Assembly: GCA_016187225.1 (NCBI GenBank)
Contig: JACPKC010000010.1
Coordinates: 67,541-131,540, forward strand
Origin: Candidatus Berkelbacteria bacterium
GTDB taxonomy: Bacteria; Patescibacteriota; UBA1384; JACPKC01
Length of the DNA: 64,000 nt
Direction of reading: 5' to 3'
In this document: positions 2,733 through 52,037 of the stretch, one piece after another
Layout: the number at the start of each line of letters is the position of its first letter
Numbering within the stretch: position 1 is the stretch's first letter
Translations under genes and position numbers: made by a program
Notes under the pieces: generated by a model
Told to the model about the DNA's origin: nothing
Database searches by the model: none
The model's input: only the letters and a program-made list of their open reading frames with translations

Positions 2733-4109
2733 ATGTTTCCCGATAGATTGCGACAGAGTCGAATCGGTATTTTAGGTTTTGGCGTGAATAACCGCGAATT
2801 GGCTCGTTGGTTAGTTCGTCATGGCGTTTCTAAATTAACAGTTTATGACGAAAATCCGGCCGTTACAGATGCACTTAAACGCCTTGGTCTGACTTCGATT
2901 CGAGTAGTTGCTGGCCCCGGCGCTTTCAAAAAAGTCGAAGCTGACGTTGCCTTTCGTTCACCTGGCATTCCACGCCATCGCCCGGAGTTTCAAGCGGCGC
3001 TTAAACGCGGCGTTGAAATCAGCTCGCAAACCGACCTTTTTCTAGAGTTTTGCCCGGCTCAAGTGATCGGTGTCACAGGAACAAAGGGCAAGGGGACAAC
3101 AAGCTCTCTTATAGCGCACTTGCTTGCCCAGGAGAAAAAATCGGGCGCCCTTCACTTGGCAGGAAATATCGGTCAAGATCCTTTTGAATTTTTAGATGCG
3201 CTGACAGCTCAAGATCGAGTCGTGTTAGAGCTTTCCAGCTTTCAATTAATCGATTTAAAGCATAGTCCAAGCGTTGCCGTGGTTTTGGCGGTATCGTCGG
3301 ATCATCTGGATCACCATTCAACACGTGAAGAGTATGTTGGCGCGAAGCAGAATATTGTTAAATACCAAAAATCGGACGACCTCGTGGTACTAAATTTAGA
3401 TAACGCAACCGCGCTCGCGTTCGGCGCCGCAACGCGCGCGCGCGCTTATTACTACTCGATCCGCAAAAGCGTCGATGTCGGCGCCTTCTATTCGAAAGAG
3501 ACAATTTATTGGCGTCAGCTTGGTCAGGAAATTCCGCAAGTTGTGGCGCACAGTGAAGATGTGTCTCTTATTGGAGAACATAATCGTCTAAACGTAGTCG
3601 CGGCGCTTACAACAGTGTTGGCTCTTGGTTACTCTCAAGATAAAATCGCGAGCGCCTTGCGTTCCTTTCCAGGTTTGTCGCATCGTCTCGAACTTGTTGC
3701 CGAGGATCAAGGCGTACGTTGGTACAACGATTCTTACGCCACCATTCCTGAAGCGACCATTGTCGCGCTCAATAGTTTTCAAGCGCCGATCCATCTCATC
3801 GTCGGCGGTTCGAATAAAGGCGCCGAGTGGCATGAATTGGGTGAGGCAATCGCGCATAGCCAAGTTAAGCAACTTTTAAGCATCGGCGAGACCGGGCCAA
3901 AGATCGCTGATGCGGCCCTGGAGGCTGGCTACGACAAAGCCCGGATTTTTGATGCCATAACCCTTGAGGCGGCTTTGCGACAAGCGCGGTCTCAAGCAAA
4001 ATTTGGTGATGTCGTTCTGCTTTCGCCAGCTTCGGCGTCGTTTGACCAATTTAAGAATGCCAGTCAGCGCGGTGAGATTTTTAAATCCTTGGTCAGAGGT
4101 CAAATATGA
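2733..4109 (+). CDS. murD: UDP-N-acetylmuramoylalanine--D-glutamate ligase
   Basis: GVTGTKGKGTTSSL P-loop and 458 aa Mur ligase architecture. Position mraY-murD-ftsW. Confidence 0.9.
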   Translation: MFPDRLRQSRIGILGFGVNNRELARWLVRHGVSKLTVYDENPAVTDALKRLGLTSIRVVAGPGAFKKVEADVAFRSPGIPRHRPEFQAALKRGVEISSQTDLFLEFCPAQVIGVTGTKGKGTTSSLIAHLLAQEKKSGALHLAGNIGQDPFEFLDALTAQDRVVLELSSFQLIDLKHSPSVAVVLAVSSDHLDHHSTREEYVGAKQNIVKYQKSDDLVVLNLDNATALAFGAATRARAYYYSIRKSVDVGAFYSKETIYWRQLGQEIPQVVAHSEDVSLIGEHNRLNVVAALTTVLALGYSQDKIASALRSFPGLSHRLELVAEDQGVRWYNDSYATIPEATIVALNSFQAPIHLIVGGSNKGAEWHELGEAIAHSQVKQLLSIGETGPKIADAALEAGYDKARIFDAITLEAALRQARSQAKFGDVVLLSPASASFDQFKNASQRGEIFKSLVRGQI

Positions 4110-5242
4110 GCTTGTCGCGTTTCCGTGGTTCGAATCGCGACAAGGTTGATTCTTGGTTGCTTTTGAGCGTGCTCATGCTCGTCGGCGTCGGTTTGATCAT
4201 GATTTCATCAGCTTCAGTCGTGCTTTCATCAGAATACTTCGGCTCGAATTATGCCTATTCAAGCAAACAACTCCTACATTTTGGAATTGGTCTAGTCGCT
4301 CTGATTGTCGGTGTACTGGTTGACTATCGTCTATGGCAACGTTTAGCGCCGGCTCTTCTTGGCGTCATAATTCTGTTATTGCTTGCCACCCATATTCCTG
4401 GGTTGGCGCAAACTGCTCAAGGCGCCCAGCGCTGGATCGAACTTGGGCCGATCCAATTCCAGCCTTCGGAACTTGTCAAGATCTTTGCAATTCTTTACTT
4501 TGCCGCTTGGCTCGCGGCAAAAGGCAGTCATTTATCGAGTTTAACGCGAGGCCTTGTGCCATTTATCACCGTCCTCGGGGTGATTACTTTGCTTATTTTC
4601 GCTCAACCCGATGCTGGGACCGCGATGGTGATTCTATTTACGGTAACGACGATGTATTTTATTGCCGGTGCGCCTTGGATGCATTTGTTCTACGCAGGAA
4701 TTTTAGGCGGTAGTTTGTTTGGGCTCTTGATTCTTTCGGCGCCATATCGGCTTCAGCGGTTTTTGGTGTTTTTGAATCCCTCTGAAGAAACTCTCGGCGC
4801 CGCTTATCACATCAACCAGGCTCTCCTTGCGATCGGCGCCGGCGGCATGTTTGGCGTGGGTTTCGGCCAGAGTAAGCAGAAATTTCTCTACTTACCCGAA
4901 CCGCACACTGATTCAATTTTTGCAATTACGATTGAAGAACTTGGTTTTTTGCGGGCAATGTTAATCGTTGCTTTGCTTATTTTCGTAATGTTGCGGGGTT
5001 ATCAAATCGCCCGGGTGGTTCAGGATCCTTTTGGTCGTTACGTTGCCGTAGGGATAACAAGCTTGATTGCCATTCAGACATTTATCAATATCGGAGCCAT
5101 GTTAGGTCTAATGCCGCTGACGGGTGTCACCTTGCCATTTATCAGCTATGGCGGTTCCTCGTTAATCTCCTTGCTTTTTGGAGTTGGGATTCTACTTAAT
5201 ATCTCTCGACAAGCAGTTTTGATCCCGAAAGGAATGCATTAG
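4106..5242 (+). CDS. ftsW: SEDS family cell-division protein FtsW
   Basis: About 10 TM segments. Conserved QPSE, PEPHTDSIFA and LPFISYGGSS motifs. Lies between murD and murG. Confidence 0.85.
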   Translation: MSLSRFRGSNRDKVDSWLLLSVLMLVGVGLIMISSASVVLSSEYFGSNYAYSSKQLLHFGIGLVALIVGVLVDYRLWQRLAPALLGVIILLLLATHIPGLAQTAQGAQRWIELGPIQFQPSELVKIFAILYFAAWLAAKGSHLSSLTRGLVPFITVLGVITLLIFAQPDAGTAMVILFTVTTMYFIAGAPWMHLFYAGILGGSLFGLLILSAPYRLQRFLVFLNPSEETLGAAYHINQALLAIGAGGMFGVGFGQSKQKFLYLPEPHTDSIFAITIEELGFLRAMLIVALLIFVMLRGYQIARVVQDPFGRYVAVGITSLIAIQTFINIGAMLGLMPLTGVTLPFISYGGSSLISLLFGVGILLNISRQAVLIPKGMH

Positions 5243-5266: not shown

Positions 5267-5404
5267 TCTAAATCGTCTCGAATTTGGCTAAACCAAACGC
5301 TTGCCTCGGTCAGTGTAACTCTCGTTACGTCTCTCTCGGCTTTCATTCGTTTCGCTCAAATTCAAACCAATTTCGAGCATGAAATTATTGGGGAACACAT
5401 CTAA
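5264..5404 (+). CDS. Possible 46-aa small ORF (MSKSSRIWLNQTLASVSVTLVTSLSAFIRFAQIQTNFEHEIIGEHI) between ftsW and murG
   Basis: Hand-translated with no internal stop. Starts on the terminal ATG of element copy A. Its TAA overlaps the murG ATG (TAATG). Has a hydrophobic core. No SD and no recognised homology. Confidence 0.2.
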   Translation: MSKSSRIWLNQTLASVSVTLVTSLSAFIRFAQIQTNFEHEIIGEHI

Positions 5405-5406
5405 TG
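5378..5406. repeat. Copy B of the CAT...ATG junction element (F orientation): catgaaattattggggaacacatctaatg
   Basis: Read directly. The terminal ATG is the murG start codon. Confidence 0.9.
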
Positions 5407-6480
5407 AAGCGCATGATCGTCCTTGCCGGCGGGGGAACCGCCGGACACGTTTACCCGGTTTTAGAAGTGATACAGGCGTTGAGAAACTTAGACCCACTGC
5501 TAGATTTTGCTTATATCGGAAATCAGACTGGCCCCGAGAGTCAGTTGGTGCGAGCAGAGCAGGTGCCATTTTATGGCATTCCGGCCGAAAAACTTCGGCG
5601 TTATTGGGATTGGCGCACCTTTCTTCTACCCTTTCGAATTTTCAAAGGCACAGTCGAAGCCTTTGGGCTTTTAAGGATGTTAAAAGCGCAAGCGGTATTT
5701 TGTAAAGGCGGTTATGTGTGCGTGCCAGTTGCCTTAGCCGCTCGCTTCTTGCGTATTCCGATAATTTTACATGAGACGGATTCGATCATGGGACTTTCAA
5801 ATCGCTTAGTGGCGCCTTTTGCGCAAGCGGTTGCAATTAGTTTTCCACGGCCATCACTTATCGAAGCTGGTAAAAATACGCGCATCGTTTATACCGGTAA
5901 TCCAGTCCGACGAGAATTTTTTTCTCAAAAAAAGATCGAGCGTGTCGATGATCGTCCCTGCCTTGTCATAGTTGGTGGTTCGCAAGGCGCACATGCAATT
6001 AATTATTTCATTCAAGTGATTTTGCCCAAACTGCTCGAGCGCTATCGAGTGATTCATATTACGGGGCCCCAAGAGTTTTCAAATTTCCGTCAATTTACTC
6101 GCACAGATGTTTACGAGCCGGTTGCTTACGCCGAGAAAATCGTTGATCTTTTAGCGCAGGCGGATTTAGTTATCTCGCGCGCTGGTGGCACAATCTTCGA
6201 ATTGGCCGCTCTCGGCAAGCCGACAATCTTAATTCCAATTCCTAATTCAGCCAACAATCATCAGCGCGTGAATGCGGAAATTTTACTAAGTCGCGGGGCG
6301 GCGGTTATGCTGAATGAGCGTCAGCTTCAGCCCGCTCAACTTCTGAAAGAAATTACTACCCTTTTTCGAGATTCGATGCGTCGACAGAAGATGGGTGAAC
6401 GGATTCGAGAATTTGCTAGACCAAATGCCGCCCAAGATGTGGCGACTTTAATTTTAAACTCGATCGAGGACCGAGCATGA
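5404..6480 (+). CDS. murG: UDP-GlcNAc:lipid I N-acetylglucosaminyltransferase
   Basis: N-terminal GGGTAGHVYP motif, GT28 architecture, dcw context. Confidence 0.9.
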   Translation: MKRMIVLAGGGTAGHVYPVLEVIQALRNLDPLLDFAYIGNQTGPESQLVRAEQVPFYGIPAEKLRRYWDWRTFLLPFRIFKGTVEAFGLLRMLKAQAVFCKGGYVCVPVALAARFLRIPIILHETDSIMGLSNRLVAPFAQAVAISFPRPSLIEAGKNTRIVYTGNPVRREFFSQKKIERVDDRPCLVIVGGSQGAHAINYFIQVILPKLLERYRVIHITGPQEFSNFRQFTRTDVYEPVAYAEKIVDLLAQADLVISRAGGTIFELAALGKPTILIPIPNSANNHQRVNAEILLSRGAAVMLNERQLQPAQLLKEITTLFRDSMRRQKMGERIREFARPNAAQDVATLILNSIEDRA

Positions 6481-7733
6481 GATATCATTTAATCGGCATT
6501 AACGGTTCGGCCATGAGCGGGTTGGCTGAAATTTTGCGTGGTTTTGGCCATACAGTAACCGGCTCCGATCTTGCAACTACCGGCCACAGCGCAACTAATG
6601 TGACTGGCGCCGAGCGGGTTATTTACACACCCGCCATTCGCGAGTCATCTCCGGGTTGGGTTGAACTTGCAGTGGCGCGAGCACAAGGGCTTGAAATCTT
6701 GCGCGCCGATGAGCTTCTTGGAGAACTTACACGGGACGCCAAACTAATTGCCATCACGGGCACACACGGCAAGTCAAGCACAACAGCGATGGTTGCTAAA
6801 ATCTGTGTAGACTTGGGTCTAAATCCGACTGTCCTAATTGGCGCACCCATTCCTGCTTGGAAAGGAAGAAACTATCGACTTGGCAATCCAAAGTTTTGGG
6901 TGCTTGAGGCGGACGATTACGATCGTAAATTTTTGACCCTTACGCCTGACATCGCCGTCGTGACCAATCTTGAGGTTGAACATTTGGACGTTTATCGAGA
7001 CCTCGCCGATATTCAATCCGCGTTCGCGAATTTTTTGCAGAAGGTCAAGGTTGATGGCACAATTATTGCTCATACTGAATCCACGGTCGACGAAATTTTG
7101 ACGAATCTTCCGGTTAGAATTATTCATTATGGAGGGGCAAGCGATGAGTATGTGCCCGCACTTTTGCCAAAACTTAAAGTTTTAGGCGAACACCAGCGCT
7201 TAAATGCCACGGCCGCGCTCGCTGTTGCTGATGCACTTGGTCTCGATCTAGGCGTAGCCAAACGATCTTTGGCGGGTTTCACTGGAACAGGGCGACGATT
7301 AGAGTATCTGGGTGAAAAAGCGGGTGTGCTCTTTTATGATGATTATGGTCATCATCCAACAGAAATTCATGTAAGTTTATCTGCCCTGAAACAAGCATTT
7401 CCCAACAGACGTTTGGTTGTTGCTTTTCAAGCCCATCAGCATAGTCGAGTCAAAGCTTTGTTTAATAGTTTTACCAAGGCTTTTAGTAATGCAACGGTCG
7501 TTTACCTTATCGATATCTATACAGTTCCCGGTCGTGATGAAAATGTTTGTGTGGAGACGCAAGACCTTGCCGCGGCTATTAGTGCCGCTGGCACAGAAGC
7601 GCGCTATCTTGGTTCTTTGCAAGATCTCAAACGCGTGTTGCCCACCCTTGTGGATAGAGGCGATGTGTTTTTAACTTTGGGCGCGACCGATATTACGAGA
7701 GTCGGTCGAGATTGGTTGGGGAAAGATAAATGA
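6477..7733 (+). CDS. murC: UDP-N-acetylmuramate--L-alanine ligase
   Basis: IGINGSAMSGLAEIL N-terminus and GTHGKSSTTAM P-loop. ATGA overlap with murG. Confidence 0.9.
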   Translation: MRYHLIGINGSAMSGLAEILRGFGHTVTGSDLATTGHSATNVTGAERVIYTPAIRESSPGWVELAVARAQGLEILRADELLGELTRDAKLIAITGTHGKSSTTAMVAKICVDLGLNPTVLIGAPIPAWKGRNYRLGNPKFWVLEADDYDRKFLTLTPDIAVVTNLEVEHLDVYRDLADIQSAFANFLQKVKVDGTIIAHTESTVDEILTNLPVRIIHYGGASDEYVPALLPKLKVLGEHQRLNATAALAVADALGLDLGVAKRSLAGFTGTGRRLEYLGEKAGVLFYDDYGHHPTEIHVSLSALKQAFPNRRLVVAFQAHQHSRVKALFNSFTKAFSNATVVYLIDIYTVPGRDENVCVETQDLAAAISAAGTEARYLGSLQDLKRVLPTLVDRGDVFLTLGATDITRVGRDWLGKDK

Positions 7734-23929: not shown

Positions 23930-24283
23930 CTACGCAGCTTTAGGCATATCCGTGCTTGCATCTGATGCACCTGCATCTGACCCCGAATCGGAGCCAGCCC
24001 CTTGATTGCGACGGGCATTGAAGCATTCGCCGCAGAGGACATCATCCCGCTTGGGCGGGAATGGCACTTGTCCTGGTTTACCGCACTGGGCGCAGACGAT
24101 GTCATACATCTGACCTCCGCCACCACGCTGTGAATCGCGCTCCGCGCGCTTTTTGGCGCGGCACTCTTTACAGCGAGTTGGGGCGCTCAAACCTTTAGTC
24201 GCGTAGAAATCTTGCTCACCTGCTGTCCAGGTAAACGTGTTCCCACAGTCTCGACAGGTGAGAGTTTGATCTTGATATTCCAC
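23930..24283 (-). CDS. Zinc-ribbon domain protein (two CxxC...CxxC units)
   Basis: CRDCGNTFTWTAGEQDFY...CKECR and CAQCGKPGQVPF...CGECF. Confidence 0.7.
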   Translation of the reverse strand: MEYQDQTLTCRDCGNTFTWTAGEQDFYATKGLSAPTRCKECRAKKRAERDSQRGGGGQMYDIVCAQCGKPGQVPFPPKRDDVLCGECFNARRNQGAGSDSGSDAGASDASTDMPKAA

Positions 24284-24427
24284 TGGAACCCTTTTTTATC
24301 CATAAAACTTGTTCGACCACTCAAGCGTCTTGCGACCGCGCAAGAACTTATTCGCAGTATAGGCGCGAATGCCCTAAAATGTCAACGTCTTGATTGTCAA
24401 TTTCTTGCCTGATACGCTACGAACATT

Positions 24428-25084
24428 ATGTTGCCCCAAGCTTTTCAGATTTTACTTAAGCGCAGAGTTATGAGCCAGACCACGCTTTTGAGCGGTCAAA
24501 CTCCTGCTAATCAACTCATGGTCGCTCGCAACATCGCTTCTATACTTAAAATCGCTCCAGTTGACACGCTTCTTGTTTTATCGCCGCCAAAAATCGCTGA
24601 CCTGCGTTCAATTCTAGAACGTCTCCAATTTAAGCCCTACCAATCAGAATATGTGCTGGCGCTTTTGATCTCGGTCGATCAATGGTCATCTGAAACAGCC
24701 ACGGCCCTGTTGAAAATTCTTGAAGAGCCGCCACCCCAGGCGCGCCTCGTTTTGTTTGCGCAGGACGAAGAGAGCGTTTTACCTACAATTCGATCACGAG
24801 CAAGCAGATTCAGGCTTCCTGTAACTTTTACGTCTCAAGAGCAGTCTTTGTCGCCCCTTGAAACACTTTTAAGCAAACCATTATCTTATCAAATGATGCA
24901 GACTGCTAAATATGCCGAGGAGTATTCAATTCCAGAAATTTTGAATTCTTGGCTTGTGCAGACTTCAAGCCGATCCCTTCAAGTTTATTTACTTACTTCT
25001 CTAACTGAAGTTGGAACACATCCGGTCAATAAACGCCTCTTTCTTGATTCATTACTCGTCAATGTTCCAGGAAGAAGAGTATGA
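24428..25084 (+). CDS. holB: DNA polymerase III delta-prime-like subunit (short)
   Basis: LLKILEEPPPQARLVLFAQDEESVLPTIRSRASRFRL (sensor/SRC region of clamp-loader subunits). No intact Walker A. Confidence 0.65.
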   Translation: MLPQAFQILLKRRVMSQTTLLSGQTPANQLMVARNIASILKIAPVDTLLVLSPPKIADLRSILERLQFKPYQSEYVLALLISVDQWSSETATALLKILEEPPPQARLVLFAQDEESVLPTIRSRASRFRLPVTFTSQEQSLSPLETLLSKPLSYQMMQTAKYAEEYSIPEILNSWLVQTSSRSLQVYLLTSLTEVGTHPVNKRLFLDSLLVNVPGRRV

Positions 25085-25671
25085 TTCTTGAGATTCTAAT
25101 CATCGCGGCGATCATTGGCATGTTTATTATTTTGGCGCGGCGTCTGCCCGATGCACTTAAAGGTGAACAGGGTTCATTGCCGCCTCAAAACACACCCGCT
25201 CGTCCAGATTTTTTTACTAGAGCTCGAATTTGGTGGAAGACTGCTAAGCGAGAACAGTTGCGCCCGGCAAAATCACCAGTGGCTGTCGCTCAATCCGTCA
25301 AAGCGCCGAGCGAAGTGCTGACCGAAGATGTGCTCTTAAGAGAAGGCGATACTTACATGCAGGAGGGTAAGCTCAAGGAGGCCGAGCGGGCATTTTTAAG
25401 GGCGGTCGCCAAAAATCCTAAAAACCCCAAACTTTATAATCGCCTGGGTGCGATTTATCTTAAACAACGTAACTATTCAGATGCGCTCCAGGCATTTGAA
25501 GCCGCTCGCGATTTGGATTCGAGCAAAGCCTCGCGCCACTATAACGTCGCTCTCGCCGCCTGGCAGATGACTAATCTTTCCAAGGCTCGCCACTCGATTG
25601 CTCAAGCGATTAGCCTCGATCCGGTTTCGGCTAAATACCAAGAGCTTAAGCAACAGATTGAAGCGAAGTAA
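25081..25671 (+). CDS. Membrane-anchored TPR-repeat protein
   Basis: N-terminal TM, then about 3 TPR-like 34-aa units (EAERAFLRAVAKNPKNPKLYNRLGAIYLKQRNYSDALQAFEAA...). Confidence 0.7.
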   Translation: MILEILIIAAIIGMFIILARRLPDALKGEQGSLPPQNTPARPDFFTRARIWWKTAKREQLRPAKSPVAVAQSVKAPSEVLTEDVLLREGDTYMQEGKLKEAERAFLRAVAKNPKNPKLYNRLGAIYLKQRNYSDALQAFEAARDLDSSKASRHYNVALAAWQMTNLSKARHSIAQAISLDPVSAKYQELKQQIEAK

Positions 25672-26668
25672 TTTGTCCCTCGAGCAATTCAATGAGTTCG
25701 GATTCGTTTTCGTCAGCCTCAATCTTGAGAGATTCAAGATGAGCGAGAAATTCTTGACCCTGCCGCGCAACCTCGTCGCCAGTTGCGTAATTCAGTTTTG
25801 GATCTAAAAATTGCCGGTTACCAATTTTCATTGATATATATTCTCGATAAAAATACTCATTACTCTCTGCGTTCACTAAGAGTGTTTGGACCATTGAGTG
25901 TAGTTCTTCTTGGTGCTGTTTGAAATATTCTTCGATAAAAATAAACTCTTGCGCATGGCGCGCAAGTCGCGGCAAAGAATTTCGTAAAATATCCCAGATT
26001 AAGGCGTGGGATTTGCGTTTTTGAGGTGGAGCAAAGGTGCCATCTTCTTGAATCATAAGCGTTGGTTCAATGTAAATACCCGAAGTTTGATTCACCTCAT
26101 CTTCATTATTGAGCGCTTCTTCAAGCACCAATCGCCATTCCTGCCGAGCAGTTTCAAGAAAAGCGATCTGCTCCGTTGCTTTCCACAACCTGCCTTCTAC
26201 CGATGATTCTGGCTTTTTTATCACTTTCTTGACGCGCAACATATCCACATAGAGTTTTTCTTGGTTACGGATCTTTTCCAAATGCAGATTAAACTGTTTC
26301 TCGGCGATCTCTTGGTTGAACCAAGTTTTTGTGCCATGAGGAATGTCGCCCTGGAATGGCCCAACTTCTTCAATGTCATGCGTTGTCAGGAGTAGGGCAT
26401 AAAATTTTCTGTCGATTTTAAGCTCCGGAACGCCGGCGTGGCCTCGCAACTTATTCTCGCGCGTCAAACATCCAAGGCCGCGTCGCAAACTGCCCTTGTG
26501 ATGAGTGGCCACCGTTCCTTCATGAGGGTAGGGCGCCTCGCCATGAACATAAGGCGCGTAGCGTTTTTCTGTTTGCGCCGCCGGTGAATAAGCAGTTTCC
26601 TTAAGAAATTCCTCTTCTTCAGGCGTAAAGATAAATTGTTCAGGTGAAAATTTTCTCGATCCCTCCAT
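25646..26668 (-). CDS. Hypothetical protein with probable HD-type (YfbR-like) phosphohydrolase N-domain and helical C-terminal half
   Basis: LLLTTHDIEEVGPFQGDIPHGTK resembles the HDxxE...GDIP...K motif of HD_3 5'-nucleotidases. The rest is unassigned. Confidence 0.5.
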   Translation of the reverse strand: MEGSRKFSPEQFIFTPEEEEFLKETAYSPAAQTEKRYAPYVHGEAPYPHEGTVATHHKGSLRRGLGCLTRENKLRGHAGVPELKIDRKFYALLLTTHDIEEVGPFQGDIPHGTKTWFNQEIAEKQFNLHLEKIRNQEKLYVDMLRVKKVIKKPESSVEGRLWKATEQIAFLETARQEWRLVLEEALNNEDEVNQTSGIYIEPTLMIQEDGTFAPPQKRKSHALIWDILRNSLPRLARHAQEFIFIEEYFKQHQEELHSMVQTLLVNAESNEYFYREYISMKIGNRQFLDPKLNYATGDEVARQGQEFLAHLESLKIEADENESELIELLEGQITSLQSVA

Positions 26669-26705
26669 CCCACCTCCTTTAGTTACCTAAAAAATAACAA
26701 ATATT

Positions 26706-26779
26706 TGGCAGGAGCTGGAGGAATCGAACCACCGACCGCGGTTTTGGAGACCGCTGTTATACCACTTAACTAAGCTCCC
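26706..26779 (-). tRNA. tRNA-Trp (anticodon CCA), CCA encoded
   Basis: Hand-folded: anticodon stem GCGGT/ACCGC, loop CTCCAAA. The T-arm GGTGG-TTCGATT-CCTCC has one central U-U mismatch. 74 nt. Confidence 0.8.
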
Positions 26780-26789
26780 TTTCTAATTG

Positions 26790-26978
26790 TTAGGTTCGCG
26801 GTTTTGGATTTGGCAATTTTGTCTCGTTATGTTGAGTGTGTTTGCGGCACCAAGTGCAGTATTTTTCAAGCACAAGCTTATCAGTTGTGTTCACAACATT
26901 TTTTGACACCACATAGTTGCGTCGCTTACATTCGACACAAGTGAGATTAAATTTTTGTCGTTTGCCTTTTTTTGCCAT
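26790..26978 (-). CDS. rpmG: 50S ribosomal protein L33
   Basis: [27 protein letters not shown]...[15 protein letters not shown]. Start set at the MAKKGK methionine. Confidence 0.9.
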
Positions 26979-27010
26979 ATTCTTCCTTTCTTTGTCTTTT
27001 TCTACAAAAC

Positions 27011-27085
27011 TGGAGCCCACGGGCGGATTTGAACCGCCGACCTATTCCTTACCATGGAATTGCTCTGCCTCTGAGCTACGTGGGC
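27011..27085 (-). tRNA. tRNA-Thr (anticodon GGT), CCA encoded
   Basis: Hand-folded: acceptor GCCCACG/CGTGGGC, anticodon stem ATTCC/GGAAT, loop ATGGTAA, T-arm GGCGG-TTCAAAT-CCGCC. 75 nt. Confidence 0.9.
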
Positions 27086-27086
27086 T

Positions 27087-27173
27087 TGGTGCTGGGGGTA
27101 GGATTCGAACCTACGAAGGCGCTGGGCCGTCAGATTTACAGTCTGATGCGTTTGACCGCTTCGCTACCCCAGC
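27087..27173 (-). tRNA. tRNA-Tyr (anticodon GTA), long variable arm, CCA encoded
   Basis: Hand-folded: acceptor GCTGGGG/CCCCAGC, anticodon stem TCAGA/TCTGA, loop CTGTAAA, 15-nt variable arm. 87 nt. Confidence 0.9.
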
Positions 27174-27181
27174 TTGTTATC

Positions 27182-27256
27182 TGGAGCCACCTGTCGGATT
27201 TGAACCGACGACCTTCACTTTACAAAAGTGTTGCTCTACCGCTGAGCTAAGGTGGC
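27182..27256 (-). tRNA. tRNA-Thr (anticodon TGT), CCA encoded
   Basis: Hand-folded: acceptor GCCACCT/AGGTGGC, anticodon stem ACACT/AGTGA, loop TTTGTAA. 75 nt. Confidence 0.9.
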
Positions 27257-27323
27257 AGGCAATTCTCCAGAAAAATAATACTAGCAAGGTAGAGAGGAAT
27301 ACTCAATGATGGGGGAGCTTATT

Positions 27324-27394
27324 TTATACACTCTACGAACGTTAAATGATTAGAGAGTGTCTAGATACTCATTTAACGTTCGTAGAGTGTATAA
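27324..27394. promoter_or_regulatory. Perfect 26-bp inverted repeat (ttatacactctacgaacgttaaatga / tcatttaacgttcgtagagtgtataa) with 19-nt spacer, in the divergent promoter region
   Basis: Arms 27324-27349 and 27369-27394 checked base by base. The outer ends read TATAAT (plus strand) and TATAAA (minus strand), which are -10-like. Confidence 0.85.
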
Positions 27395-27454
27395 TTGACA
27401 GAAGTGGAGTATTCTGATATATTGCTAATGTACGAAGTGTTCTATGGAGGGAAA

Positions 27455-27961
27455 ATGGAAAAGAAGGATAAACAAAAAGACTTTCAACGTCTTTTCGATG
27501 AAATCGAGTTGCAAATTTTGTATGCCGAAACTCCAATTCAACTTTCTTCAGCGCTTGCAAAGATTACAAAAAACAATCGCTTAATCCAGCGAAATTTACA
27601 TCGTCTATATGATATCGCAAGCCCGGCACGGATTCTAGGGTTAGTCTTACGCGGTTACGAAATTCCTGATGCTCTAACGCGTCTAGAATCAAATCGTTCT
27701 TTGCTCGATCTAAATAGAACCCTAGAGACTCTGTCGAGAACAGCGCTTAAGGAGCAAATTTGGCTCATGCTGGCGCAACAACGTGAAGTTCTGCTTGCTC
27801 AAATAGAACAAGATTTAGAGACACTTGTGCTTAGGTCGTCTGATCAGCGAGCGATTGCAAGTAGAAAACAAATTTTACTTGCAACCTACGAGCTAATCCA
27901 GGAAAATACAAAAATTGCAGTTGAAAAGGTTTTTGGGCGCGCTTTGTCGGTGGAGGGGTGA
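27455..27961 (+). CDS. Hypothetical helical/coiled-coil protein (168 aa)
   Basis: GGAGGG SD lies 5 nt before ATG 27455. The longer TTG 27395 start would begin inside the inverted repeat. No recognised motifs. Confidence 0.5.
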   Translation: MEKKDKQKDFQRLFDEIELQILYAETPIQLSSALAKITKNNRLIQRNLHRLYDIASPARILGLVLRGYEIPDALTRLESNRSLLDLNRTLETLSRTALKEQIWLMLAQQREVLLAQIEQDLETLVLRSSDQRAIASRKQILLATYELIQENTKIAVEKVFGRALSVEG

Positions 27962-28080
27962 TGATAACCGTTATTGAGGAATTTGAAGAACTGATTGACC
28001 ATGGTCACGAGCATTTTGCGTGGATAGAACGCTTTATTGCGATCTATCTTTTTCATTTTGTGATCAATGTTCTAGCCTAA
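27961..28080 (+). CDS. Possible 39-aa ORF coupled to the upstream gene (MITVIEEFEELIDHGHEHFAWIERFIAIYLFHFVINVLA)
   Basis: TGATG stop/start overlap with the upstream gene. No homology recognised. Confidence 0.2.
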   Translation: MITVIEEFEELIDHGHEHFAWIERFIAIYLFHFVINVLA

Positions 28081-28369
28081 GGGGCTATCCCGAACAAGAC
28101 AGTTTTTCTTCGTTTCAGGTAACCGGCTGAAAACTATTATTCTTCGACTCTCCGTTTTACGGCATTTTTTGAATGTCTCAAACAAGAGCCAGAAGTATAA
28201 ACCCGTCAGTGCGGGCAGATTTTGTTATCGCGAGTGAACCGTAGCGATCCTGGTAGATTGTCGCGGTTGCAACCTCGTAATTTTCAGGATTGCTTCGTCG
28301 TCCTTGGCTCCTCGCAATGACGACAATGAGAAAGCCCTGATAAATAGGGAAACAGGGGATTGAAGGTGG

Positions 28370-28390
28370 CGTGGATAACTGTGGATAACT
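28370..28390. promoter_or_regulatory. Tandem 10-mer GTGGATAACT x2 containing one perfect (TGTGGATAA) and one 8/9 DnaA-box-like site
   Basis: Read directly. TGTGGATAA is the complement of the TTATCCACA DnaA-box consensus. Box spacing is 10 bp. Confidence 0.4.
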
Positions 28391-28893
28391 TTCACAATGG
28401 GGGAGTGAAAAGGGGATGCCGCGCCTAAACTGTTTAGGCGATTATATGGTGCATGAAAAAGTTTATAAGAGGGGAGTAAAGATTATTTAATGCTAGGGAA
28501 GTGCAAATTTTTTTTATTGTGTGTAATTTTTTATCCTACAAACTCTCCCCCGCTTTCAGCTTGTCGTCGTAAGTCATCCAATTTTTGATAGGCGCATGTT
28601 GCGTACGCTAAAAAACTCATTGATATTTTAGAAATAAAATACTACTCCCCTGCTCCAAATTTTTGCATCATTTGAGATCGTTAGGAAATTTATTTTCTGC
28701 ACCTCGAAAAGAGCGCCAGCGACGCTTTTGCAGAGAAGTCCTCGACTATATAAATAATTCTCGATGCGCTTCGCTTACTCGAACAAGAATACTTTTTAAC
28801 CATCAAAAACTTTCGACACGCCCGGACAAGAACCCAAGGCCAGTCTTGAGCAAAACATTTCTTGCTAATGGGCGGGAGACTTAAGACAGAGAG

Positions 28894-50942: not shown

Positions 50943-52037
50943 GTGGAAAGAATTACGCCAGCCGAAAGAGCCATCTGGGCAGCGTTTGCGAGCGATCTCT
51001 ACTTCGGTCCAACTCATCTGAACGAACTTCTGGCATTGAATGAAACGTTGCAGAGCATTTGGGAAAAACCCGAGCATGAGCTCAAAAAAATTCCTATCCG
51101 ATCGGCCACTCTTCAAGCGATCGTCAAATTACGGACGAACGTTGATCCTATAAAAGTTCTGACTAACCTCCAGAAACAAGGAATTAAATTTATTACTCGA
51201 TTCGATGCCGATTACCCGGCGCTTCTTGGTGAGATTACTGTTCCGCCAGTAGTATTATATATACGCGGAAAATTAGAAAACAAAAATCATACGAACGTAG
51301 CAATCGTAGGCAGTCGACGCATGACAACCTATGGCAAGCGGACGGCTGAATATATCAGTCGGTCGCTCGCACAGAGCGGCATTACGATTGTATCTGGGCT
51401 CGCGCTTGGTATCGATTCGGTTTCTCACAAGGCCGCACTGGAGGCAGAGGGAATTACCTGGGCAGTTTTAGGTTGCGGATTAGATCAGATTTACCCATCC
51501 AGCCATACCCAATTAGGCGAAAGAATTTTGTCGAATGGCGGCGCTTTGATAAGTGAATTTCCGCCTGGTACGCCAGCGCTCCGCCACCATTTTCCGATCC
51601 GCAATCGTATTATTGCTGGCTTGTGTAGCGCAACAATTATTGTTGAGGCGACCGAACGCTCGGGGACGCTCAGCACTGCGCGCGCGGCCTTGGACGCAAA
51701 TCGCGAAGTTTTTGCCGTGCCTGGCTCGATTTTTTCACCCAATTCAGTTGGTTCTCATGCACTCCTCAAATCTGGAGCTGGGCTTTTACATACTCCAAAT
51801 GACATTCTCGAAGCGCTCGGCCTTGAAATGAAGTCATCGGATCGTCCAGTTACACAACTTACGAGCGTAGAAAGTGTAATTTTTGCCACCCTTTCACATG
51901 AACCGATGCTTCTCGACGACCTGATCACTGCCACCCAACTGACGTCGAGTGCGATTGTTAGCACTTTAACGTTAATGGAAATCAAAGGTCTTGTTCAAAC
52001 GGCTGGGCAAGGGCGATACGTTCGATCGCACTCTTGA
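50943..52037 (+). CDS. dprA: DNA-processing protein DprA (Smf)
   Basis: GSRRMTTYGKR...GLALGIDSVSHKAAL Rossmann-like core and C-terminal winged-helix-like segment. Confidence 0.9.
   Translation: MERITPAERAIWAAFASDLYFGPTHLNELLALNETLQSIWEKPEHELKKIPIRSATLQAIVKLRTNVDPIKVLTNLQKQGIKFITRFDADYPALLGEITVPPVVLYIRGKLENKNHTNVAIVGSRRMTTYGKRTAEYISRSLAQSGITIVSGLALGIDSVSHKAALEAEGITWAVLGCGLDQIYPSSHTQLGERILSNGGALISEFPPGTPALRHHFPIRNRIIAGLCSATIIVEATERSGTLSTARAALDANREVFAVPGSIFSPNSVGSHALLKSGAGLLHTPNDILEALGLEMKSSDRPVTQLTSVESVIFATLSHEPMLLDDLITATQLTSSAIVSTLTLMEIKGLVQTAGQGRYVRSHS

Follow-up and report, generated by a model that had tools for sequence, protein, structure and literature searches.

On balance, the 71-bp palindrome at 27324–27394 of the window (the whole 64-kb stretch of DNA that was analysed) is probably an expanded form of a conserved promoter-proximal cis-element, with its left arm a lineage-specific inverted copy of that element. 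Alignment of related loci identifies the right arm as the native, ancestral and orthologous upstream element of the promoter of ORF168, the gene of the plus strand next to the palindrome. Since the palindrome would then be a local, lineage-specific mirror copy of a control element, we regard it as a modest instance of how promoters evolve and not as a system of a new type. The features concerned are the following.

26706–27256, minus strand: unit of tRNA-Trp, rpmG and tRNA-Thr(ggt)/Tyr/Thr(tgt), inverted against its flanks relative to most relatives
27278–27306, minus strand: predicted promoter of the tRNA-Thr/Tyr/Thr-rpmG-tRNA-Trp unit, read from sequence
27324–27349, no strand assigned: left arm, TTATACACTCTACGAACGTTAAATGA, exact reverse complement of 27369–27394
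27350–27368, no strand assigned: spacer of 19 nt between the arms
27363–27394, plus strand: operator-like block, orthologous to the ~26-bp imperfect dyads of relatives
27369–27394, no strand assigned: right arm, TCATTTAACGTTCGTAGAGTGTATAA, exact reverse complement of the left arm
27395–27423, plus strand: predicted sigma-70-type promoter of ORF168, scan score 11/12 with TG motif
27455–27961, plus strand: ORF168 (HYW32_03260), its family found in Berkelbacteria-like assemblies only
27958–28080, plus strand: ORF of 40 aa that overlaps the ORF168 stop codon

The original prediction described perfect 26-bp arms set 19 nt apart and far beyond chance in 64 kb, and both statements hold. The arms are exact reverse complements, and chance would give about 3e-9 perfect inverted repeats of 26 nt, spaced by up to 200 nt, in 64 kb of the same composition. 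If one mismatch is allowed, the pairing reaches 29 nt and leaves 13 nt in the centre. Even with 3 mismatches allowed, the arm 26-mer is confined in the window to its two known positions and has no match in 100 shuffles, so that the many dispersed copies that would have marked a generic repeat were not found within the window. The distance of 60 nt to the ATG at 27455 was given correctly, and that to the 5' end of tRNA-Thr(tgt) (27256, minus strand) measures 67 nt rather than 68 nt. Hexamers resembling -10 elements are indeed present at the outer arm ends, TATAAT at 27390–27395 on the plus strand and TATAAA at 27328–27323 on the minus strand.

The conserved promoters nevertheless fall outside the arms, with the sequences TTGACA-17-TATATT and TTGAGT-17-TAGTAT, and for this reason the arm-end hexamers, which had been described as -10-like, are not the conserved promoters. 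The predicted ORF168 promoter comprises a -35 TTGACA at 27395–27400, a 17-nt spacer and an extended -10, TGaTATATT, with its TG at 27415–27416 and its hexamer at 27418–27423. Across a 10-locus alignment, TTGACA and the TA...T of the -10 (TAnnnT) are invariant. The predicted tRNA promoter, with -35 TTGAGT at 27306–27301, a 17-nt spacer and an extended -10 TGcTAGTAT (hexamer 27283–27278), scores below the threshold of the consensus promoter scan; L002, L003 and L004 have TTGnnn-17-TGnTAnnAT equally far from tRNA-Thr. Transcription is predicted to start near 27430 on the plus strand and near 27271 on the minus strand. An additional 8-nt inverted pair, GAATACTC/GAGTATTC, was noted in the two promoter spacers, off-register with the main axis. 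Being displaced in this way, and with ~0.15 such pairs expected by chance, it was left uninterpreted.

The case for the right arm as native promoter DNA comes from the relatives. In ten Berkelbacteria-like loci, a block of the form (TATACA)-N3-4-ACG[A/T][A/T]CG-N4-8-(T)GTATA directly abuts the invariant TTGACA; its CG..CG core is invariant and the TA of its left half-site is (nearly) invariant across the alignment. The right arm carries the core, ACGTTCGT at 27376–27383, followed by the half-site AGTGTATAA, which touches the -35 hexamer. Its 10-mer AACGTTCGTA is identical in locus L010, where GATATACATAAAACGT equals GATACTCATTTAACGT of the window at 12 of 16 positions, and MAFFT places the same columns together. 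In L003 and L015, the element follows the tRNA-Trp terminator of a co-oriented unit, and in relatives with the opposite tRNA-rpmG orientation it still lies directly upstream of the -35 of the ORF168 homologue. The conserved element, judged from these alignments, thus goes with ORF168 and not with the tRNAs, and the tie to the tRNA unit proposed earlier is not borne out. Conservation in relatives, which had been suggested as a check, is accordingly one-sided: the right arm is kept at ORF168, and nothing corresponding is found upstream of the tRNA promoter. In most loci, the conserved TGTATA(A/G/C)T overlapping the -35 itself looks like a -10 element, and an upstream promoter that overlaps this one could therefore account for some of the conservation.

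Dyad symmetry was assessed in the 36 nt upstream of the -35 of each locus against 2000 shuffles, and it is significant in four of the ten loci, those of the closest relatives. L003 has 11/13 pairs (reached by 2/2000 shuffles), L010 has 10/13 (12/2000), L015 has 9/13 (31/2000) and L011 has 9/13 (57/2000). Examples are ATACATAAAACGT/TCGTACTATGTAT at 346–371 of L010 and TTTACACATAGTACGT/ACGTTCTATGTATAG in L003. The dyad axis lies 13–15 bp upstream of the -35 hexamer, i.e. near -50. By the same 2000 shuffles, symmetry is insignificant in L002, L005, L006, L012, L013 and the proximal block of the window, and in loci of this kind the element may be a non-symmetric site, or something else. The orientation of the core alternates between lineages, ACGTTCG in some and its complement ACGAACG in others, as is expected for a symmetric recognition site.

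On this footing, the right-arm element is most simply read as a putative transcription-factor operator. Through the conserved dyad, a dimeric transcription factor would act on the ORF168 promoter from an activator-type or UP-occluding position. Of the earlier proposal of a symmetric operator serving both promoters, the promoter-upstream placement and the conserved, partly dyad right arm survive, and the assignment of the element to the tRNA unit is not supported. The composite motif has no further sites in the window or in the fetched loci of relatives, and the operator reading therefore has no backing from a regulon in the window. No regulator gene adjoining the repeat was found among its neighbours. 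The short core TACGWWCGTA is over-represented in the window (11 occurrences against 3.7 expected), its matches outside the repeat lying mostly inside ORFs.

Operators of dimeric factors, such as class I/II activator sites and shared divergent operators of the tetR/tetA kind, offer the closest comparison for the element as such. The resemblance lies in a dyad fixed relative to the -35, conserved in diverged genomes and situated here between divergent promoters. The differences are that no regulator adjoins it here, that TATACA..ACGWWCG..TGTATA fits no operator tested, and that the arms, at 26 bp, greatly exceed the length of a half-site. Palindromic operators near the -35 in divergent regions are known, for example that of the LysR-type regulator ThnR (PMC4834489). 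Among specific operators, the CIRCE pattern of HrcA, TTAGCACTC-N9-GAGTGCTAA, gives 0 matches across the window with 3 or fewer mismatches. Superficially, the arm ends TTATACACTC...GAGTGTATAA share letters with its half-sites, but they are spaced 49–53 nt apart instead of 9, and the downstream genes are not chaperones. The Cheo box, the Gram-positive type of LexA box (CGAAC-N4-GTTCG), is likewise not matched in or around the repeat with one mismatch allowed, the CGAAC and GTTCG of the two arms being 37 nt apart.

The left arm has a different standing. It carries a core of its own, ACGAACGT at 27335–27342, and no counterpart of it exists in L010, L003, L015 or the other aligned relatives. Together with ~10 nt of the spacer, it is present only in this genome among the compared loci. 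L010 has the same gene order, a short dyad only and no long repeat, and its intergenic region is 146 bp against 198 bp here. The spacer holds AGAGTGTCTA (27354–27363), a partial direct copy of the right-arm end AGAGTGTATA (27384–27393), and in its right part GATAC (27363–27367), a remnant of the ancestral left half-site. These direct and inverted sub-repeats indicate local duplication.

The extra inverted copy was most likely made by replication template switching on a pre-existing imperfect palindrome, a process that perfects and lengthens inverted repeats (PMC13100816, PMC8794818, PMC7202029). A shorter imperfect repeat stands at the orthologous site in L003, L010, L015 and L011, and the derived lineage, here, has a longer perfect repeat with one ancestral arm. 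Documented template-switch cases from yeast promoters (PMC13100816), RNA hairpins (PMC8794818) and E. coli (PMC7202029) are alike in that outgroups carry a short imperfect palindrome where the derived lineage carries a longer perfect repeat, and also in that the site is part of a promoter, where a transcription factor probably binds within it. In contrast to them, the arm added here is placed beyond the old left half-site, and with a third, partial copy in the spacer more than one step would be needed; a one-step fold-back model does not exactly reproduce the observed spacer. A further difference is that this host is an uncultivated bacterium of the Candidate Phyla Radiation (CPR), with no close outgroup for base-by-base reconstruction. 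As the nearest relatives are distant (37–43% identity for ORF168, 80–84% for L33), timing, exact ancestral sequence and template-switch path are matters of inference. If the left arm did arise in this manner, the identity of the arms would speak for recency or ongoing homogenisation rather than for selection on 26 bp. Two copies of the core ACGWWCGT now stand 41 bp, or some four helical turns, from each other, at ~-50 of the ORF168 promoter and ~-67 of the tRNA promoter, so that one factor could bind cooperatively and reach both divergent promoters; the new left copy may be either in use or a nearly neutral recent mutation. Quasi-palindrome mutagenesis as such reportedly goes back to Ripley in 1982 and to Lovett.

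Adjacency to the tRNA genes has its own history. BLASTN comparison with L003 and L002 shows collinear flanks and a reversed tRNA-rpmG unit. The flanking proteins of the window and its relatives are homologous. The unit is co-oriented in L002, L003, L004, L005, L006, L007, L011, L012 and L015, and among the loci compared it is reversed in the window and L010 alone. The inversion, to judge from this distribution, is old and fixed, being common to L010 with its short dyad, and it is only because of this older event that the tRNA-rpmG unit adjoins the palindrome. The long repeat is most parsimoniously younger than the inversion; the alternative is that the left copy was lost in L010. The repeat as by-product or substrate of the inversion is disfavoured, as L010 is inverted without it and no copy lies at the other breakpoint (26669–26705). 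Recombination models with staggered breaks or flanking repeats predict one copy at either end of the inverted segment, whereas here the two are adjacent. Crossover sites of an invertase (hix/gix) were likewise rejected, since the arms are adjacent instead of lying around the tRNA unit, and a Pfam scan of nine proteins found no recombinase.

The favoured account, a conserved ORF168 element with a recent inverted copy, has to be set against readings in which the palindrome as a whole is the functional object. That all 71 bp were selected as a bidirectional operator co-controlling the tRNA-rpmG and ORF168 promoters appears unlikely to us. The repeat does lie between two predicted divergent promoters, its arms are perfect over 26 bp, and its two ACGWWCGT cores stand 41 bp apart, about four helical turns, at activator-type distances of ~-50 from the ORF168 promoter and ~-67 from the tRNA promoter. 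But L010 is also divergent and has a short dyad only, which implies that the long repeat is not needed for the arrangement; no relative examined carries the element in front of its tRNA promoter; the placement is asymmetric, at 0 nt from the ORF168 -35 and 17 nt from the tRNA -35; and 26 perfect bp far exceed what any operator half-site needs. A later co-option of the copy is distinctly improbable as well. The dyad would in that case be the operator of a Berkelbacteria factor, and cooperative binding to two sites, possibly aided by a cruciform, would couple the tRNA/ribosomal-protein operon to ORF168. A structural role, in which a cruciform extruded under supercoiling between the promoters acts as a sink, a switch or a protein-independent roadblock, is very unlikely. 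The repeat folds strongly as single-stranded DNA (-27.2 kcal/mol, z = -10.3), the partial self-complementarity of its centre brings the loop down to 5 nt plus a bulge, and its site suits the twin-domain model, by which negative supercoiling arises between divergent promoters. Extrusion is disfavoured, however, by the 13–19 nt non-complementary centre, relatives share the arrangement without the repeat, and conservation as linear sequence already explains the right arm.

The readings that remain would make the palindrome something other than a promoter element. An inverted pair of DnaA boxes regulating the adjacent promoters is suggested by the outer 9 nt of each arm, TTATACACT, which equals the consensus TTATNCACA at 8 of 9 positions, and by a tandem box pair (one perfect, one with 1 mismatch) some 1 kb away in a non-coding gap at 28370–28388; yet matches of this quality abound (the window has 60 with one mismatch, ~44 being expected), the sequences of relatives, ATATACATA, CTATACATT and TTTACACAT, vary at the critical CACA positions, and neither GC skew nor gene orientation points to an origin here, which together leave this reading very little probability. 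Much the same holds for a transcribed RNA hairpin, be it a small RNA, a terminator or a site of processing. Its predicted fold is very stable (-40.8 kcal/mol, z = -8.6), but both conserved promoters point away from the repeat, which is upstream of each and covered by no predicted transcript. Neither arm is followed by a U-tract, the terminator scan does not list it, and Rfam returns for it only chance matches below threshold to eukaryotic miRNA precursors (29 bits against a gathering score of 86), tRNAs alone passing the threshold in that scan. Extremely improbable in our judgement is a remnant of a mobile element, whether a MITE/REP-like palindrome, an attachment site or an integration scar by the tRNA cluster, as had been suggested originally. 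The close tRNA cluster, the rearrangement of its unit and the slightly lower GC content over 26–32 kb (0.44 against ~0.48) speak for it. Against it, nine other loci have native sequence orthologous to the right arm, the window holds no second copy at 3 mismatches, the repeat lies 5' of the tRNA where integrases usually target the 3' end, flanking direct repeats were not found, and no integrase, transposase or recombinase domain appeared in nine neighbouring proteins scanned with Pfam. An attL/attR test gave no direct repeat of tRNA sequence besides the two paralogous tRNA-Thr genes. A 20-mer of the arm has no exact match in the viral, JGI-metagenome and GTDB-genome collections, from which the source genome is itself absent, and sub-words of the arm give matches at chance level only. 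REP/BIME and MITE sequences are similar in being intergenic, strongly hairpin-forming and tens of bp long; they differ from this repeat, which is single-copy in 64 kb and has native promoter DNA as one arm. A chimeric fold-back from assembly or amplification is no less remote. The Logan assembly of run SRR12113420 has an identical repeat sequence; it probably derives from the same reads as the NCBI MAG, which speaks for this reading. Against it, two different assemblers gave the same result, the contig of 320,597 bp has the repeat in its interior, single reads (length assumed to be ~150 nt) would span 71 bp, and both flanks are coherent, conserved promoters. An assembly artefact is unlikely on the strength of the identical Logan assembly, the contig-internal position and this spannability.

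One known tRNA operon invites comparison with the left arm. In E. coli, thrU(tufB), a tRNA-Thr-Tyr-Gly-Thr operon, has upstream activating sites for FIS. The left arm lies at ~-53 to -78 of the tRNA-Thr/Tyr/Thr promoter, within the range from which FIS site I acts. FIS is not known outside the proteobacteria. The likeness ends there, in that no relative has the element at the tRNA promoter and the sequence derives from the promoter of the neighbouring gene.

To our knowledge, almost nothing is known of transcription control in CPR bacteria. In this context, the locus supplies a phylogenetically footprinted CPR promoter (TTGACA, 17-nt spacer, TAnnnT) together with a candidate operator at a fixed position, and promoter and operator can be used as a synthetic bait for the binding protein. 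It would also provide a clean natural bacterial example in which an imperfect palindrome close to a promoter has grown into a long, perfect one; published cases of such growth come mainly from yeast, primates and laboratory E. coli reporters. Should the copy have been co-opted, it would represent a recent, traceable instance in which template switching has rewired regulation in a CPR bacterium with a reduced genome. More generally, a long perfect palindrome beside a tRNA cluster need not concern the tRNAs, adjacency here being a by-product of inversion.

ORF168 itself is predicted to be an ARM/HEAT-like alpha-solenoid, on the basis of a confident AlphaFold2 model. It has no Pfam domain, no helix-turn-helix in the model and no significant Foldseek match, and as an alpha-solenoid without a DNA-binding fold it was rejected as an autoregulator. 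A first protein search returned only ORF168 itself, and its candidacy as an orphan gene was dropped when homologues were later found, via synteny with L33 homologues and then by profile search. The contig of L014 begins 41 nt before the ATG, and in the relative with the most similar L33 the contig breaks off at the tRNA. A search for further related loci gave two already in the set from GTDB genomes and none from JGI metagenomes. As with the 40-aa ORF of the window, ORFs of 39–49 aa also follow the ORF168 homologues in L003, L013, L014 and L015.

The left arm of the repeat, 27324-27349 (TTATACACTCTACGAACGTTAAATGA), is the exact reverse complement of 27369-27394 across 19 nt, confirming the original prediction. 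The complementarity grows to 29 nt with one mismatch, which leaves a centre of 13 nt, and the chance expectation for such a repeat is ~3e-9. The folding energy of a single strand is -27.2 kcal/mol for DNA (z = -10.3) and -40.8 kcal/mol for RNA, and the repeat sequence recurs unchanged in the Logan assembly of run SRR12113420. The ATG at 27455 is 60 nt away, as predicted, and tRNA-Thr(tgt) (minus strand, 27182-27256) has its 5' end at a distance of 67 nt rather than 68 nt. The search for further copies proposed at the outset returned none: the 26-mer has no other match at ≤3 mismatches in the 64-kb window, the extent over which single-copy status holds, and a 20-mer has no exact match in three public collections, from which the rest of the source genome is absent. 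The accompanying interpretation (divergent operator, cruciform or mobile-element scar) is supported in part.

The hexamers TATAAT and TATAAA, at first described as -10-like at the arm ends, are present, but the conserved promoters lie elsewhere (TTGACA-17-TATATT and TTGAGT-17-TAGTAT). The features are:

27395-27400, plus strand: TTGACA of the predicted near-consensus sigma-70 promoter of ORF168 (a gene for a 168-aa protein), starting directly after the right arm
27418-27423, plus strand: hexamer of the same promoter, within TGaTATATT, after a 17-nt spacer
27455, plus strand: ATG of ORF168, preceded by the ribosome-binding site GGAGGG, both downstream of the promoter
27306-27301 and 27283-27278, minus strand: predicted promoter of the tRNA-Thr/Tyr/Thr-rpmG-tRNA-Trp unit (TTGAGT, 17-nt spacer, TGcTAGTAT), ~20 nt before tRNA-Thr
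27455-28080: ORF168 gene with the small ORF after it (in related loci: L003, 3430-4081; L013, 3001-3668; L015, 552-1203)
26669-27323: inverted tRNA-Thr/Tyr/Thr-rpmG-tRNA-Trp unit including its promoter, compared with L003 (2593-3340), L002 and L010

Since both promoters are placed outside the arms, the palindrome is upstream of each, spanning about -36 to -106 of the ORF168 promoter and about -53 to -123 of the tRNA promoter. The pattern TTGnnn-17-TGnTAnnAT stands at equal distance from tRNA-Thr in L002, L003 and L004.

ORF168 (HYW32_03260, on a 320,597-bp contig of the Candidatus Berkelbacteria MAG that supplies the window) initially appeared to be an orphan, an impression overturned by homologues of 23-40% identity on syntenic contigs (L002-L007), which were reached through L33 (rpmG) homologues of 72-84% identity. 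A profile search added 11 cluster representatives, all labelled Berkelbacteria where a source is named, and further loci (L010-L015); the relatives used are distant from the window's genome. The family was seen in Berkelbacteria-like assemblies only, with the conserved motifs LRGYExP and WLMLAQQ..LL..IE.DLE, and the fold predicted with confidence (pLDDT 89) is an ARM/HEAT-like alpha-solenoid. An ORF of 39-49 aa regularly lies 3' of the gene, and an invariant TTGACA-17-TAnnnT promoter lies 5' of it.

An alignment of ten loci anchored on the -35 hexamer shows no variation in TTGACA or in the TA...T positions of the -10 hexamer. Immediately 5' of the -35 lies a conserved block made up of a left part TA(TACA), a core ACG[A/T][A/T]CG with invariant CG..CG positions, and (T)GTATA, which ends 1-2 nt short of TTGACA. 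By this alignment, the window's right arm is the conserved block: its AACGTTCGTA is identical in L010, and 27363-27378 (GATACTCATTTAACGT) matches L010 GATATACATAAAACGT at 12/16 positions. The block of L003 and L015 sits between the terminator of a co-oriented tRNA-Trp and the -35 hexamer, a position that assigns it to the ORF168 promoter and not to the tRNA unit. The closest relatives show an imperfect dyad with its axis 13-15 bp 5' of the -35 hexamer, pairing 11/13 positions in L003, 10/13 in L010 and 9/13 in both L015 and L011 (scores reached by 2, 12, 31 and 57 of 2000 shuffles, respectively). In six loci, the window's own proximal block included, the symmetry is not significant by the shuffle test. 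The core reads ACGTTCG or its complement ACGAACG according to lineage, as a symmetric site would predict. At ~2920-2950 of L011, after tRNA-Trp and 25 nt 5' of the ORF168 homologue's -35 hexamer, we also observed a perfect 13-bp hairpin (TATACACCACCGA-TTT-TCGGTGGTGTATA), followed by no T-tract; it shares the outer ends TATACAC/GTGTATA with the window's palindrome but not the interior.

The window and L003 are collinear on both sides of the tRNA unit (left: delta-prime-like, TPR and minus-strand ORF340-homologue genes; right: ORF168-homologue gene and convergent PKD gene), but the unit between these flanks is reversed. Nine loci (L002-L007, L011, L012 and L015) have the unit in the same orientation as the ORF168 homologue, and only the window and L010 have it reversed, a distribution indicating that the head-to-head order is the derived state. 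ORF340 (25646-26668, minus strand; ribosome-binding site AAGGAGGTG) now starts 37 nt past tRNA-Trp, a gap that holds no terminator and is too short for a promoter, so that following the inversion it is probably co-transcribed with the tRNA operon.

No aligned relative has a counterpart of 27324 to ~27359, and L010, despite the same reversed orientation, has a short dyad only (346-371) in an intergenic region of 146 bp versus 198 bp in the window. On the simplest reading, then, the ancestral element was copied in inverted form in this lineage alone, after the inversion, giving the left arm, although L010 may once have had the copy and later lost it. Within the spacer, 27354-27363 (AGAGTGTCTA) is a direct copy of the right-arm end (9/10) and the centre is near-palindromic; a history of more than one step is thus probable. 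Template switching during replication on imperfect palindromes perfects and lengthens inverted repeats, including those in promoters (PMC13100816; see also PMC8794818, PMC7202029), and likely made the long repeat here.

What this genome carries, on comparative grounds, is a conserved, position-fixed, partly dyad-symmetric element at ~-50 of a conserved promoter, together with a second inverted copy. We lean slightly towards an ancestral operator-like promoter element enlarged by local inverted duplication. The element would be the site of a putative dimeric regulator. The cores at 27335-27342 and 27376-27383 are offset by 41 bp, nearly four turns of the helix, and the distal core is at ~-67 of the tRNA promoter, which makes cooperative binding at both cores, with an effect on both promoters, geometrically possible. 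The left copy may just as well be a nearly neutral mutation of recent date, with arms still perfect because it is young, and a selected bidirectional operator seems rather unlikely.

A dispersed repeat or mobile-element scar, the latter raised by the original prediction, has little probability, given the single copy in the window, the unmatched 20-mer, an arm that is native orthologous DNA, a position on the 5' side of a tRNA, and no integrase among nine neighbouring proteins scanned against Pfam. Similarly improbable is a terminator or transcribed RNA hairpin, since the repeat lacks a U-tract, lies upstream of both promoters and gives only sub-threshold eukaryotic miRNA hairpins in Rfam. The arm ends match DnaA boxes at 8/9 positions, but such matches are common and this one is not conserved in relatives, leaving that explanation a small chance. 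The CIRCE and Cheo box patterns are not matched. That the repeat would act by extruding as a cruciform also has a small probability. Invertase sites were also rejected: the arms adjoin each other rather than flanking the inverted unit, the other breakpoint has no copy, and no recombinase domain was found among the neighbouring proteins scanned against Pfam.

A stretch of ~810 bp (28081-28893) has no ORF >73 aa; the small ORF that follows ORF168 bounds it on one side and the PKD-domain gene's 3' end on the other. In L003 the corresponding syntenic gap spans just ~80 bp. The window's region has tandem DnaA-box-like CGTGGATAA and TGTGGATAA 10 bp apart (28370-28388), long A/T tracts (~28480-28540 and ~28610-28665), an imperfect 26-nt inverted repeat (28453-28478/28643-28668) and no Rfam match, and neither GC skew nor gene orientation suggests a replication origin there. 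The interval separating ORF 4106-5242 from ORF 5404-6480 is taken up by a 50-nt inverted repeat (5237-5286/5357-5406; 74% complementary, 70 nt between arms). TACGWWCGTA (≤1 mismatch) has 11 matches in the window against 3.7 expected, a count reached in 0/100 shuffles; they include matches at 51290-51869 and also at 6918, 48656, 62530 and 63706, with three inside ORF 50943-52037, and those outside the palindrome are mostly intragenic by ORF coordinates. A near-consensus minus-strand promoter, TTGACA-18-TATACT (24356-24385), is directed leftwards into 23930-24283, where the sole ORF listed has 117 aa and a GTG start. Upstream of it, at 24418-24427, AATGTTCGTA is the palindrome-arm core with one mismatch and overlaps the start of the delta-prime-like gene at 24428.
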